Source of the DNA: a virus
Taxonomy: Duplodnaviria > Caudoviricetes
IMG/VR virus record: IMGVR_UViG_3300037961_003327
Span: 1-54,053 of that record
DNA: 54,053 nt
Direction: 5' to 3' (one strand)
A program made the position numbers and the translations under genes. The notes below the pieces were generated by a model. It ran no database searches. It saw only the letters and a program-made list of their open reading frames with translations, and was not told the DNA's origin. This document shows, piece by piece, positions 7,509 to 23,124 of this stretch (within the stretch, counting starts at the first letter, position 1; the number at the start of each line of letters is the position of its first letter).

Positions 7509-9626
7509 TTAATTGACCTTATACTTTCTAAAAAATACGCGATCATTGAAATTAGATTGTTTCTTTTGTTTTTGTTTTTGACACCCTAACAATGCAAGAC
7601 CAGAACTAATAGTCAAGTCATATTTAGTTCTCTTGTCTATTTTAAATCCTATCCAATCCTCTAGCGTTCTGTTAAAATACATATTACCTACTTCGCCAGT
7701 TTCATAGCTAACACCTACATGTTCATGAATATATTTTTCTATAGATTGAGCATGAGCCTGTATGACATCTTGAGAGTTAGATGGGATACCTTTTGTTTTC
7801 ACATTTGTGTGTGAAGAAGCACTAAGAAGGTGTTTCGGTCTGTCCATTAAGTAACCATCATAACCTCTTGACTCAAAGTATCTTACAATACCATACTTGT
7901 TGTTCTCTACGAGCAAAGGGTATCCGTAATAAAAAGCACACATCAACACATCTTCATAAAAGATGCTAGCCAAGTCTGGACGTGAAGCATATTCTACAAC
8001 AAACATGTTTGATGGTCGATTCATGTTAAACTTATTGTACATGTGTAGGGCACCTTTAGAGCCTCTATTATCTACCGTAGCATCTAAATCATAAGAGTCA
8101 ACACCACCACATCCATATTCAGGGAAAGGAGCAACTCTCTTCCCTCTCTCTAGCTTACATATATTCCTTTCGTTGGATTCAGGCATCCAGCATACCTTGA
8201 ATCTGCCGTTTGGAGTTGGAGAAAAAACAACTTCTTTGTCTTTTTCTTTCCAAGTAAAGTTTCCTGTAACTACGGGGTTGGGATATAGCTCATCGTTGTG
8301 CTCTATCTGCTGATAAATTTTGCCTATGTTGAAAAGGCTGCTTTCAATACTGTCTCTAAATGCTTCGTCCTCGGTAAACGGAAACTGCCTGGTTATCTCA
8401 TTAAGCTCAGAAGGGTTATCTTTAAAAGATTTTCTTTCGTTCTTCAAGTAAGACTTACTCCCGCTTTCTATGACTTCTCCGTCTATGCCTTGTATTTTGT
8501 CATTTTGATCGGGGTCTTCTATTACTGCGTTTCCGTATTCGTCAAAGAAACCCTCTAGGGCTTCGTATGCAGGAATGAATATTCTGTAAAGACCCGACCT
8601 AGTTCTTCCGTTGGCATTTCTTTCGTTGGGATTTGAGTCATTCCACAAACCCCTGTACTCTTTCCCTCCTTTATTCATAGGGTTGACAGTAGATCCAACA
8701 ATTGCTTTTCCGACAATCCTCTTACCTACAATCAAGCAAGTTCTTTCTATCCTCCAAGCCTCACGGATGTCTGTAGGCTTCTCCCACTTGCCCGCCTCAT
8801 CGAGGTACAGCATGTGTAGCTTCTCACCATCGTATGCGTTGTTCGTGGTGTTCTTCCAGTTAATTACGGTGTTAAGTGCATCACCACGGTAAGACGTCTT
8901 GTTGTTTTTCGTGATACGTTTCGATGGCTCACGAAACGCTAACTCCATACGAGGGTTAGTCGTACCGTCTTGGATAGGCTTGAAAAAGAAAGGGTAGCCT
9001 CTAAAAATAGAGACTACTTTTTTCATAAAAATATTTTCTTGAGCGTCTTTACCAGTCTTTGACTGAATCCCCAAAAGCTTCTCTTTAACTTGACTAGCTT
9101 CGTCAACAAGTACAGCAGAGCATATATTAGTGTAGCCAGAACGACGACACTTAGTATATAGCTGACCGAAACAACGGGGATCAGCTTCGCAAGCAGCCAT
9201 GTGAAGAAAGATTTCTCTTTGGAAAGCAAGGTATGATGGGTATCCGATATCGATTTTAGACCATTGTAGAAACATATAGTGTCTCCCTGTAATATACGTA
9301 GGGACCCCATTGTTGTAAAACCAAACGCCGTTCCTCCTGCGTTGAAACTCTTTTTCGATGTATACACGAAACTTTGACCGAAACTCGGCAGGTTTTTCGA
9401 ACCACTCATCCATACTTCGAATCCTTTGCAGTTCTTCGGGCATAGGCAAGCGCCTCCACAACTGCAACTCCTTTGGCTCTTCATGGAAGAGTATCTCAGA
9501 TCGCTTCGGTTTTTTTGGTAGCACAATAAGTAGCCCACTCGATTCGAAGTGATTTCCCTCTGTGCCGTTAGGGTCGATTTTAATCCCTTTAGTTTCATAG
9601 CCATCTATATCTACAAGTACAGACAT
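7509..9626 (-). CDS. terL: Terminase large subunit
   Basis: Walker A-like KCRRSGYT, Walker B YLDEAGKW, GST motif, nuclease GVDSYD, ENN, and YDLTISSGLA. Start moved to ATG 9626 because the track start falls in the tRNA. Confidence 0.92.
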   Translation of the reverse strand: MSVLVDIDGYETKGIKIDPNGTEGNHFESSGLLIVLPKKPKRSEILFHEEPKELQLWRRLPMPEELQRIRSMDEWFEKPAEFRSKFRVYIEKEFQRRRNGVWFYNNGVPTYITGRHYMFLQWSKIDIGYPSYLAFQREIFLHMAACEADPRCFGQLYTKCRRSGYTNICSAVLVDEASQVKEKLLGIQSKTGKDAQENIFMKKVVSIFRGYPFFFKPIQDGTTNPRMELAFREPSKRITKNNKTSYRGDALNTVINWKNTTNNAYDGEKLHMLYLDEAGKWEKPTDIREAWRIERTCLIVGKRIVGKAIVGSTVNPMNKGGKEYRGLWNDSNPNERNANGRTRSGLYRIFIPAYEALEGFFDEYGNAVIEDPDQNDKIQGIDGEVIESGSKSYLKNERKSFKDNPSELNEITRQFPFTEDEAFRDSIESSLFNIGKIYQQIEHNDELYPNPVVTGNFTWKEKDKEVVFSPTPNGRFKVCWMPESNERNICKLERGKRVAPFPEYGCGGVDSYDLDATVDNRGSKGALHMYNKFNMNRPSNMFVVEYASRPDLASIFYEDVLMCAFYYGYPLLVENNKYGIVRYFESRGYDGYLMDRPKHLLSASSHTNVKTKGIPSNSQDVIQAHAQSIEKYIHEHVGVSYETGEVGNMYFNRTLEDWIGFKIDKRTKYDLTISSGLALLGCQKQKQKKQSNFNDRVFFRKYKVN

Positions 9627-9639
9627 TGAATTTAATTTG

Positions 9640-9713
9640 TACACCCGACAGGATTCGAACCTGTGACCGTCTGCTTAGAAGGCAGATGCTCTATCCAACT
9701 GAGCTACGAGTGC
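9640..9713 (-). tRNA. tRNA-Arg, anticodon UCU
   Basis: Reverse complement GCACTCGTAGCTCAGTTGGATAGAGCATCTGCCTTCTAAGCAGACGGTCACAGGTTCGAATCCTGTCGGGTGTA folds as a cloverleaf; anticodon arm TCTGC-CTTCTAA-GCAGA; T loop GTTCGAATC; CCA not encoded. Confidence 0.95.
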
Positions 9714-19468: not shown

Positions 19469-19678
19469 ATGGGAAACATGAGTTATTGCCGCTTCGAAAA
19501 CACGTCAATCGATTTGGACGACTGTATCGAAGCAATTGAGAACGGAAACATTAACGAACTCAGCGTATACGAAATACGCGGGATTCTCAACCTCAGAGAT
19601 CAGGCCAAGTACATAGTAGAGCTATGGTCGGACATTGAAGAAGGAGTAAAACAATCCAAGCGGTACAATTTAGAATGA
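19469..19678 (+). CDS. Early phage protein (MSYCRFENT motif)
   Basis: MGNMSYCRFENTSIDLDDC; start probably 19469 rather than 19442. Confidence 0.7.
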   Translation: MGNMSYCRFENTSIDLDDCIEAIENGNINELSVYEIRGILNLRDQAKYIVELWSDIEEGVKQSKRYNLE

Positions 19679-19758
19679 GAAAAATTTGGAAGTAAACAAT
19701 TCGCGTTATTAAATTAGCAACGCATCCAATGACGGGTGCAATTCAAAAACTCAAACAA

Positions 19759-20076
19759 ATGGACAATAAAACTTACACCAAGAGAAGCCCATCGGACCTT
19801 GGGTACACAATTGGGCTACAAGATGCAATCGACGCGCTGCGAGAGGCGTTCAAAGACGCTGACACGGAGAAGACCTTTCACTATAGAAAGATAACAGACG
19901 GCGTTACGATAGGCGAAGCCTACACGCACCATCGCAGCCGTTATGAGTTCTACGACGGCAAGTGCGATGCGTACGCAGAGGCTATCAAAGCACTTAAGGC
20001 TAACCTTGAGTCGATTAACAAAGAGTACGTAGTACAATTTGAAATGAGAAAAATTTGGGAGTCTGAGGCATACTGA
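19759..20076 (+). CDS. Early hypothetical protein; stop codon lies in the ribozyme core
   Basis: Starts MDNKTY at 19759 (track start 19729); TGA 20074-20076 is part of CTGATGA. Confidence 0.7.
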   Translation: MDNKTYTKRSPSDLGYTIGLQDAIDALREAFKDADTEKTFHYRKITDGVTIGEAYTHHRSRYEFYDGKCDAYAEAIKALKANLESINKEYVVQFEMRKIWESEAY

Positions 20077-20156
20077 TGAGCCCTGACAGGGCGAAACTGG
20101 GCAGGAGGTCAACCATAACTCCGAGCAGACTAACCAACTGCACCCAGTCTATGTCT
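20066..20156 (+). ncRNA. Hammerhead ribozyme, type I
   Basis: Stem I AGGCATA(20066-72)/TATGTCT(20150-56); core CTGATGA(20073-79); stem II GCCCT-GAC-AGGGC(20080-92); GAAA(20093-96); stem III ACTGGG(20096-101)/CCCAGT(20143-48) extended by CAG/CTG; cleavage triplet GTC ending 20149. Confidence 0.9.
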
Positions 20157-20174
20157 AATCTAAATTCAAACACT

Positions 20175-20456
20175 ATGGACAATAAAACTTACAACGGTTG
20201 GTTCAACTACGCAACGTGGAGAATCAACTTAGAGATTTTCGACGGCTTCGATGCTGAAGATCACTACGGGATTGATTCGGATTGTGATGCTTACGATTTG
20301 GGTCAGCATCTAAAGGACTACGCGGAATCGATAATTGAAATTGACGTCCCTTCTAAATCGTTGGCGTTATCGTATGCTTACGCCTTTATGCAAGATGTGA
20401 ATTGGTCAGAGATTGCGCAACACATGATTGACGAAATAAAAGAAAACGAAGAATAA
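20175..20456 (+). CDS. Early acidic phage protein (YNGWxNYATW motif)
   Basis: Real start probably MDNKTYNGW at 20175; the track's upstream extension runs through the ribozyme. Confidence 0.75.
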   Translation: MDNKTYNGWFNYATWRINLEIFDGFDAEDHYGIDSDCDAYDLGQHLKDYAESIIEIDVPSKSLALSYAYAFMQDVNWSEIAQHMIDEIKENEE

Positions 20457-22320: not shown

Positions 22321-23124
22321 ATGAATTTTAATCGAATCTTTGAAACAACAGACTACAATCAATTTGACTGGACCGAAATAAACAGAGACATAGTAGAGTC
22401 CCAAGTCAAGAAACTAGAGGCCGATATCGACAGCGGTATGGGGATTATGACCCCCATACTAGTGAACCCAAAAAAGGTAAACGGTAAACTTCAAGTTCCT
22501 GACGGTCAACATAGATTGGTAGCACTAAAAAACAAAAATCGACCAATCCGTTACGTGTTCGCAACACGTCAGATGGATTTGAACGATATCACTAGGATCA
22601 ATACCCAACAGCGGCCCTGGTCTACCATGGACTATATCAAAGCCTTTGCGAAAGCAGGCAAACAAGATTACGTCCGATTGCTAAACTTCCATGAAGAGGT
22701 GCAAGAAAGGATAGATATGATACCCAACGTAAAAAGGATTTCTGTGAGAGCGGTTTCTTTTTTAGCCCAGGGGGACGCAACAAATCCTAATACGGCAGGT
22801 ATCTTTAAAATAAAAGACGGAACATGGAAGTTCAGGTCAACTGAGAAGCAAGCCCGCAAAAACCTGAATATGTTTATTCAGTTCGCTGAGATAACAGGGT
22901 CATGCTTAACAGAGTGCTTCATCCAAACCATCTTTTCTATGATTAAACATCAAGATGAGTTCAACGTAAACCGATTGCTACGACAGGCAAAGGCTTACCC
23001 TCACTTGTTTTATAGTTGCTCAAGGAATCAGGACTACATGCGTATGATTGAGGAGCTGTACAACCATCGCAAGAAGAGTAACAATCGGGTCTACTTCCGA
23101 TTCCGTAAAAAGTTAAACGCATGA
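22321..23124 (+). CDS. ParB/Srx-like domain protein
   Basis: INR...PILV...DGQHRL motif; start probably MNFNRIFETTDY. Confidence 0.75.
   Translation: MNFNRIFETTDYNQFDWTEINRDIVESQVKKLEADIDSGMGIMTPILVNPKKVNGKLQVPDGQHRLVALKNKNRPIRYVFATRQMDLNDITRINTQQRPWSTMDYIKAFAKAGKQDYVRLLNFHEEVQERIDMIPNVKRISVRAVSFLAQGDATNPNTAGIFKIKDGTWKFRSTEKQARKNLNMFIQFAEITGSCLTECFIQTIFSMIKHQDEFNVNRLLRQAKAYPHLFYSCSRNQDYMRMIEELYNHRKKSNNRVYFRFRKKLNA

Follow-up and report, generated by a model that had tools for sequence, protein, structure and literature searches.

We analysed a stretch of 54,053 nucleotides (nt), hereafter the window, corresponding to positions 1 to 54,053 of the IMG/VR virus record IMGVR_UViG_3300037961_003327 (Duplodnaviria; Caudoviricetes), and concentrated on a hammerhead ribozyme located at 20066-20156 of the + strand, between two small genes with which it is co-oriented. 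The upstream open reading frame (ORF; 19729..20076, +) belongs to no Pfam family and has a weak match to phrog_24994; its start may be the ATG at 19759 (MDNKTY...). The downstream gene (20175..20456, +) encodes a 93-amino-acid protein of the Pfam family DUF7249 (33.9 bits for a cutoff of 27), whose residues 3-92 align with profile positions 2-90 of 93. As the profile alignment begins at residue 3, the start of this gene is fixed at 20175, which corrects gene calling at the locus: the gene is the 93-residue DUF7249 protein and not a 126-residue ORF running through the ribozyme. By every sequence criterion tested here, the element lying between these two genes is a bona fide type I hammerhead ribozyme.

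All its parts can be placed on the + strand. The 5' strand of stem I (AGGCAUA, 20066..20072) pairs over 7 bp, one of them G.U, with the 3' strand UAUGUCU (20150..20156), with which the downstream product would begin after cleavage. The catalytic core CUGAUGA (C3-A9; 20073..20079) and the core GAAA (G12 A13 A14 A15.1; 20093..20096), both direct readings of the sequence, flank the stem II hairpin GCCCU/AGGGC (20080..20092; 20080-20084 with 20088-20092, 5 bp), closed by a GAC loop. Stem III (20096..20148) pairs ACUGGG with CCCAGU (20096-20101 with 20143-20148, 6 bp) and carries a branched insert of 41 nt (20102..20142) in which two 4-bp hairpins are predicted. The GUC triplet at 20147-20149 sets the predicted scissile bond (20149..20150) after C17, i.e. 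C20149, and the downstream gene is preceded from there by an A/U-rich leader of 25 nt (20150..20174) without a Shine-Dalgarno (SD) motif. All hammerhead core positions are present (C3 U4 G5 A6 N7 G8 A9 at 20073-79, and G12 A13 A14 at 20093-95), the A15.1-U16.1 pair is A20096-U20148, GUC serves as the NUH triplet, and the pairs next to the core are intact, with no mispair (G20080-C20092, U20150-A20072, A20096-U20148). Helix I is open while helices II and III are closed, which is the type I topology. The stem III insert also holds AGGAGGU (20103-20109), a perfect complement of the anti-SD sequence; no start codon follows it, and the genes of this phage lack SD motifs.

Folding and simulation agree with this reading. 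The minimum free energy and centroid folds of 20060-20165 (ViennaRNA) are exactly the hammerhead three-way junction, at -29 kcal/mol; in a 156-nt context the junction is kept and stem I is predicted to be lengthened by an A/U-rich helix past an internal loop. A strict descriptor (CUGAUGA, stem II of at least 4 bp, GAAA, stem III of at least 5 bp, UH, stem I of at least 6 bp) gave one match over both strands of the window, versus 0 in 600 windows simulated with a first-order Markov model, and a relaxed descriptor (4/3/3) returned the same single site in the window versus 6 matches in the 600 simulations. The complete type I hammerhead that the first-pass annotation had described, with its stems and its cut site, is thus confirmed base for base. 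Its two statements on the position of the ribozyme relative to the genes also hold: the upstream ORF ends at the UGA 20074-76, which is the first UGA inside the core CUGAUGA, and the ATG at 20175 lies 25 nt past the predicted cut. Moreover, none of the three frames stays open over the initial 25 nt of the ribozyme region, UGA occurring at 20064, 20074/20077 and 20084.

The + strand block to which the locus belongs comprises small unknown genes, then genes for a DNA methyltransferase, a ParB-like protein, an exonuclease, a primase/helicase and an endonuclease; terminase, portal and structural genes form a - strand block. The + strand block is plausibly an early or middle operon. The earlier assignment to an early operon therefore stands in part, being plausible from the coding strand and from the small co-oriented genes upstream of DNA-metabolism genes. 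An SD-like tetramer at -18..-4 was found for 6 of the 65 window ORFs, against 8.8 % of random 14-mers, which indicates that SD motifs are unused by this phage; start codons in the window are preceded by A-rich sequence. The exact motif GTATATTTG occurs seven times (11945, 13995, 15914, 16531, 29982, 45592 and 47026), always on the - strand and upstream of - strand ORFs, and five of the seven copies lie 4-5 nt before the start codon. It resembles TAnnTTTG, which we take to be the -7 element of Bacteroidota promoters. Considered with the rarity of SD motifs, these occurrences suggest promoters of Bacteroidota type and near-leaderless late messenger RNAs (mRNAs). The sequencing runs holding the stretch are marine, seawater, estuary and marine-plankton metagenomes, and the host is probably a marine member of the Bacteroidota.

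We consider it likely that this type I hammerhead cuts a polycistronic mRNA between two cistrons of the small-gene + strand operon of a marine phage. Hammerheads cleave 3' of C17 and leave a 2',3'-cyclic phosphate and a 5'-OH. In the window, the transcript would fold into the three-way junction and cut itself between C20149 and U20150. The upstream product would consist of the upstream cistron with its stop codon intact, followed by 73 nt of folded ribozyme (20077-20149) and ending in a 2',3'-cyclic phosphate, whereas the downstream product would carry a 5'-OH and have a short, unstructured, A/U-rich leader of 25 nt ahead of the DUF7249 cistron. Owing to the type I topology, the upstream RNA would keep the stop codon together with the entire ribozyme body, with normal termination and a structured 3' end. 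The two cistrons would be uncoupled in stability and decay as well as in the 5' context of translation, i.e. the ribozyme would act as a natural intercistronic insulator. In vivo cleavage, the nature of the new ends and the consequences for expression are inferences. The idea that the phage processes its own polycistronic mRNA, already put forward from the sequence, finds a parallel in PMC3088659, where the same role is proposed for hammerheads of phages and prophages, and stands here as a prediction as far as cleavage is concerned. The finding marks a likely mRNA processing site in this phage.

Some other features of the predicted RNAs were recorded. The 3' cleavage product (20150-20230) is predicted to fold with z = -4.04, with a strong hairpin (20196-20229) that lies within the DUF7249 coding sequence; the new 5' end (20152-57) is also predicted to pair weakly, over 6 bp, with the start-codon region (20176-81). 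By eye, 7 nt of the insert (20132-38) were seen to be complementary to 20197-20203, a match judged to be within chance.

In order to place this ribozyme among other phage hammerheads, relatives were searched at several levels. The phage GenBank collection yielded no close relative, whether searched by DNA or by tblastn with each of the flanking proteins, and neither flanking protein used as query had a relative in viral contigs. Exact-pattern scans of viral contigs gave 0 matches each for the core plus stem II and for the leader. The pattern made of the core, stem II and the start of stem III was found in one other viral contig, L002, whose hammerhead has a different stem I, a stem III of 13-14 bp and an upstream stop TAA directly before CUGAUGA. 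A degenerate core pattern run over viral contigs gave at least 120 loci, bringing the total with L002 to at least 135 other cores. Descriptor sorting of the 135 listed cores assigned 85 to type I, 47 to type III and 3 to neither. One type I hammerhead, at L121, has a stem I identical to that of the window on both strands (AGGCAUA/UAUGUCU) and a compact stem III, so that the window ribozyme looks like the L121 type with an insertion in the stem III loop. The window ribozyme is an ordinary member of a large class of phage hammerheads known since 2011; what is unusual at this locus is the branched 41-nt stem III insert and a clean presence/absence polymorphism of the ribozyme together with its gene.

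Pairing was assessed on an alignment of type I sequences from this survey. The 85 cores gave 72 distinct sequences that had a stem I of at least 5 bp, a stem III of at least 4 bp and complete flanks; the 56 that were no longer than 62 nt were aligned, and 16 type I sequences with a long stem III, including L002, were left out. Two-sided changes were observed at 6/6 pairs of stem I, 3/5 of stem III and 1/4 of stem II, the remaining stem II pairs being fixed by the search pattern. The covariation score was 0.79 versus 0.06-0.10 for slid partners, in 56 sequences that had been selected for pairing; likewise, the 99 % pairing of the alignment is partly by construction, the rows having been picked by a pairing descriptor.

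Near-identical relatives of the window provided natural variants. In the metagenome contig L123 the sole difference within the ribozyme is A20088G, which turns a U-A pair of stem II into U.G. A contig of sequencing run X11 covering 19713-20210 has 10 differences from the window, among them C20083U, which turns a C-G pair of stem II into U.G, A20142G, which would add a C20102-G pair and lengthen stem III, and T20062C, which is outside the helices. The three variants inside the ribozyme, all from near-identical relatives, are pairing-compatible; none is in the core and none is two-sided. This pattern is compatible with constraint on the predicted structure, the variants being too few to prove it. 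T20062C also argues against a candidate 3-bp pseudoknot between the GAC of loop II and GUC 20061-63, since the natural variant breaks this pairing.

Several observations weigh against an active processing site at 20149/20150. The check with Infernal and Rfam models proposed in the first-pass annotation did not succeed: over the window, Rfam at gathering thresholds returned only one transfer RNA (tRNA, at 9640-9713) and no hammerhead, and none of the hammerhead models (RF00163, RF00008, RF02275-7, RF03152) reaches its gathering score at the site. With permissive settings, RF00008 scores 23.4 bits for a cutoff of 48.5 and aligns with the 5' half only, in a type III reading without a real helix I, and RF03152 (the RAGATH-1 hammerhead) scores 14.4 bits for a cutoff of 56.3. 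The type I model RF00163 has no match at the site, its sole match in the window being a spurious one of 10.6 bits at 22546-22578. RF03152 is nevertheless the only Rfam model whose alignment spans the complete ribozyme, with GUC and stem I placed correctly; its score is low because its 5' hairpin is absent here and because the 41-nt insertion is charged. This extra conserved 5' hairpin is mismatched at the site in the RF03152 alignment. As a control, nine phage loci with canonical compact type I hammerheads (L121, L018, L002, L064, L083, L015, L104, L075 and L011, the last of which holds three hammerheads) were searched in the same way and also gave no hammerhead match at gathering thresholds (Rfam 15). 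As these loci fail too, the missing threshold is weak evidence against membership. The Rfam gathering thresholds miss this whole class, and standard annotation pipelines under-report it.

A covariance model, R1, built from the alignment of the 56 other phage type I hammerheads, speaks both for and against the site. The site is its best match in the window (20064-20117; 28.2 bits, E 3.4e-6, true members scoring 43-71 bits), which favours the hammerhead reading, but the model places the 3' half on the wrong GUC, at 20107-09 inside the insert, because the model cannot pay for 41 additional nucleotides. Among the other adverse points, the fold energy is unexceptional relative to shuffled sequences (z -1.28 for 20060-20165 and z -0.24 in the 156-nt context), the core-to-cut distance of 77 nt is the longest among the 86 type I hammerheads listed (typically 37-42), so that the stem III insert could make folding slow, and no tertiary contact between loop II and stem I is supported. 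A close relative, the sibling phage L124, does without the ribozyme, which must therefore be dispensable for the downstream gene. Lastly, two contigs of the metatranscriptome X20 are related to the locus. One, of 151 nt, matches 20066-20097 with one difference and has different flanks, i.e. it represents a related hammerhead elsewhere; the second matches 20147-20258 behind a 39-nt 5' part unlike the window. Neither ends at 20150 and, as assembled contigs, both are uninformative on cleavage.

The organisation of direct repeats around the ribozyme bears on how it came to lie between these genes. The repeat D1 (31 nt, 90 % identity) is found on the + strand at 19663-19693 and 20032-20062, the second copy lying just 5' of the ribozyme, and D2 (19 nt, 100 % identity) at 19759-19777 and 20175-20193, also on the + strand. 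D2 encodes MDNKTY, the first six codons of both flanking genes; this shared segment is all that aligns between the two flanking proteins (E 0.028), and their paralogy was rejected. The two D2 copies form the left and right edges of a 416-nt accessory cassette (19778..20193, +), composed of the body of the upstream gene, the hammerhead, the leader and one copy of D2. In L124 (953-1264) the cassette is missing and the DUF7249 gene comes directly after the first D2 copy. Likewise, one X11 contig lacks the cassette, with a joint from 19768 to 20174 and a depth of 21.9, the cassette-bearing contig of the same run having a depth of 11.1. D1 and D2 look like boundary sequences for the shuffling of small early genes. 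Because the ribozyme is part of the cassette, it arrived with the upstream gene or was lost with it. A further contig, from run X5 (149 nt, depth 2.5), joins 20029 to 20148 through 12 other letters; it would keep the stem I strands as a small hairpin without the core and stems II and III, and may be a ribozyme-less allele or, given its low depth, an assembly artefact.

From this organisation one can tentatively propose that the ribozyme is a portable insulator, which moves with the upstream gene and supplies the gene already in place downstream with a new 5' end and leader, thereby avoiding polar effects. A unit bounded by a perfect 19-nt direct repeat, and its absence from L124 and from one X11 contig with the DUF7249 gene fused to the other repeat copy, are as expected for such an element. 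So is the occurrence of two type I hammerheads, 0.5-0.85 kilobases apart and at other gene junctions, in each of L104, L075 and L121, the first two of which have homologous genes in common with the window. However, the polymorphism represents a single indel event that does not distinguish insertion from deletion between repeats, and the DUF7249 gene of L124 is expressed without a ribozyme. Type I loci are also not confined to hosts without SD motifs: the SD-like fraction ranged from 0 to 1.0 across 70 type I loci, and a tie between hammerheads and SD-less hosts was rejected as a general rule.

The overlap between the upstream stop codon and the ribozyme core may point to a further layer of behaviour, which would add to the processing role rather than replace it. 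A ribosome terminating at 20074-76 would occupy stem I and the core as well as part of stem II, so that upstream translation should transiently prevent folding. Cleavage might then be gated by terminating or passing ribosomes, which would melt stem I and the core along with half of stem II and allow cutting only in gaps in the traffic; separation of the cistrons would be inversely dependent on upstream translation. The earlier suggestion had been that cleavage may depend on the upstream gene being translated. From the geometry, one expects a terminating ribosome to block folding transiently, and there is no hint that translation is required for cleavage.

We examined whether such an overlap is general using two proxies for upstream genes. 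The first took the nearest same-strand ORF of at least 60 codons, open from stop to stop and ending between -150 and +40, and found an upstream ORF for 69 of the 85 listed type I hammerheads. The stop codon was the core UGA in 10 of these 69, inside stem I in 22, at most 20 nt before stem I in 18, further upstream in 13 and deeper inside the ribozyme in 6. The second proxy, a greedy set of non-overlapping ORFs of at least 50 amino acids, was stricter: among all 85, the stop was the core UGA in 5, inside stem I in 22, at most 20 nt before stem I in 16, inside the ribozyme (+2..+15) in 3, at -60 to -21 in 3 and beyond 60 nt in 30, and 6 had no upstream same-strand gene. The stop codon thus falls in the core UGA or inside stem I for 32/69 or 27/85, depending on the proxy. 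By the second proxy, the next start lies 16-50 nt past the cut in 33/85. Stops within -12..+16 of the core C close all three frames in 29 of the 85 and two frames in 44, i.e. at least two frames in 73. The arrangement seen in the window is typical of the type I class and not special to it, a stop in or near stem I or the core being present in about half of these hammerheads.

The listed type III hammerheads (L003-L122) behave differently, with an upstream stop 22-38 nt before the 5' end of the ribozyme in 25/43; as type III keeps the stop upstream, the type I overlap does not merely reflect tight packing or simple genome compaction. An unmodelled 5' element may fill the 22-38 nt gap before type III hammerheads. 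Ribosome gating is favoured by this difference, by the placement of the window stop inside CUGAUGA and by the class-wide overlap and frame closure, and yet we regard it as doubtful. CUGAUGA contains two in-frame UGAs, so that one frame in three must end there anyway, and this alone could yield much of the core-stop (+1) class; stem I stops may reflect tight packing together with conserved stem I flanks (xxAG, UAA); and the two proxies differ in size, the second leaving 30/85 without a gene closer than 60 nt. In the literature outside subscription journals, we found no report of phage hammerheads that overlap a stop codon or are coupled to translation. The term 'stop codon' is absent from the main text of PMC3088659, whose supplementary alignments may already contain this class. 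With an upstream stop in or at the ribozyme in about half of the 85 sampled, the role of phage hammerheads becomes testable through the coupling of translation and cleavage.

A broader view would unite gating and mobility, making phage type I hammerheads a class of ribosome-gated, portable intercistronic insulators that move with accessory cassettes, of which the window would be one clear instance, having its stop in the core and a cassette indel relative to L124. We judge this generalisation unlikely. If it were true, ribosome traffic would set folding and cutting, and cassettes could drop into operons without polar effects.

It is decidedly improbable that the ribozyme is instead a catalytically poor or decaying hammerhead, too slow in vivo owing to its branched 41-nt insert and the lack of a demonstrable tertiary contact. 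The record core-to-cut length, the weak fold z-scores, the loss of the candidate contact in variant T20062C and the low Rfam scores would all fit such a state. Against it, the core is perfect, the three natural variants keep or improve pairing, and long stem III inserts exist elsewhere, the core-to-cut distance being 72 nt in L064, 71 nt in L083 and 60 nt in L015 among the listed hammerheads. We also know of no constraint of helix III length on hammerhead catalysis.

That the motif is a chance occurrence in coding sequence, with AUG 20076-78 starting a 126-residue form of the downstream protein and overlapping the upstream stop as UGAUG, is hardly credible despite an open ORF (20076-20456) in frame with ATG 20175 and a GAGG at 20065-68, 7 nt upstream of the core AUG, since the 93-residue form already covers the DUF7249 profile from position 2 of 93, the L124 ortholog has no extension and an unrelated upstream sequence, SD motifs occur in this phage at about the chance level given above, the strict descriptor found nothing in the simulated windows, and ATG-initiated ORFs of at least 50 codons open inside the ribozyme in 18/85 listed type I hammerheads (11 at the core AUG; 11/85 by the second proxy).

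The preferred reading, i.e. intercistronic processing by a type I hammerhead, can be compared with systems already described. The intergenic position of phage and prophage hammerheads and the hypothesis of transcript processing were described in 2011 (PMC3088659) and taken up again in a review of 2019 (PMC6765202). The examples given by Perreault et al. in the former include a triple arrangement around ardA in A. tumefaciens, PaP3 and Bcep176. Like the window ribozyme, these hammerheads have the consensus core and lie between co-oriented phage genes of variable identity; several may occur per operon, flanking single genes in prophages, which is matched by the pairs of L104, L075 and L121; and the role proposed for them, the cutting of long phage transcripts into gene-length mRNAs, is the one proposed here (PMC3088659). 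The ribozyme in the window is of type I, with a branched 41-nt stem III insert. A longer helix III is reported for bacterial and phage type I hammerheads in a 2026 paper (PMC13725137). The HHphage hammerhead of the haloviruses HF1/HF2 lies 13 nt before an early-gene start codon in a polycistronic transcript, comparable with the 25-nt leader found here, and a 5' end was mapped within 3 nt of its cut; in contrast with the canonical core of the window, it has a core variant thought to need high salt and belongs to an archaeal virus (PMC3088659).

Outside phages, the type I hammerheads of fungal and plant RNA viruses resemble that of the window in their longer helix III and their position just upstream of an ORF, and the paper on them itself likens them to bacterial and phage type I hammerheads; the role proposed for them differs, being translation initiation in eukaryotic cells. 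RAGATH-1 (RF03152) is similar to the window in that its model aligns with the whole ribozyme, and differs by the extra 5' hairpin of the family and by the 41-nt insert, which the family lacks. Synthetic insulators of the RiboJ type, engineered from a plant satellite RNA, place a hammerhead before a cistron, which gives the cistron a standard 5' end and makes it independent of the sequence upstream. In these parts the ribozyme body stays on the downstream RNA, whereas the type I topology of the window would leave it on the upstream RNA.

Minor observations were also made at other loci of the survey and elsewhere in the window. In L083 (6139-6227, -), a G+C-rich hairpin followed by eight U, resembling an intrinsic terminator, lies inside stem III of a type I hammerhead; a transcript that ended at this point would carry only part of the ribozyme, and one that read through would carry all of it. 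L104 has a type I hammerhead that is followed on its own strand, after about 33 nt, by a tRNA gene (7528-7596 and 7629-7684, both -), so that cleavage would take place shortly before the tRNA. In the window itself, a tRNA (9640-9713, -; 71.8 bits) is found directly upstream of the large terminase ORF (7509-9644, called with a GTG start), with which it overlaps by a few bases.

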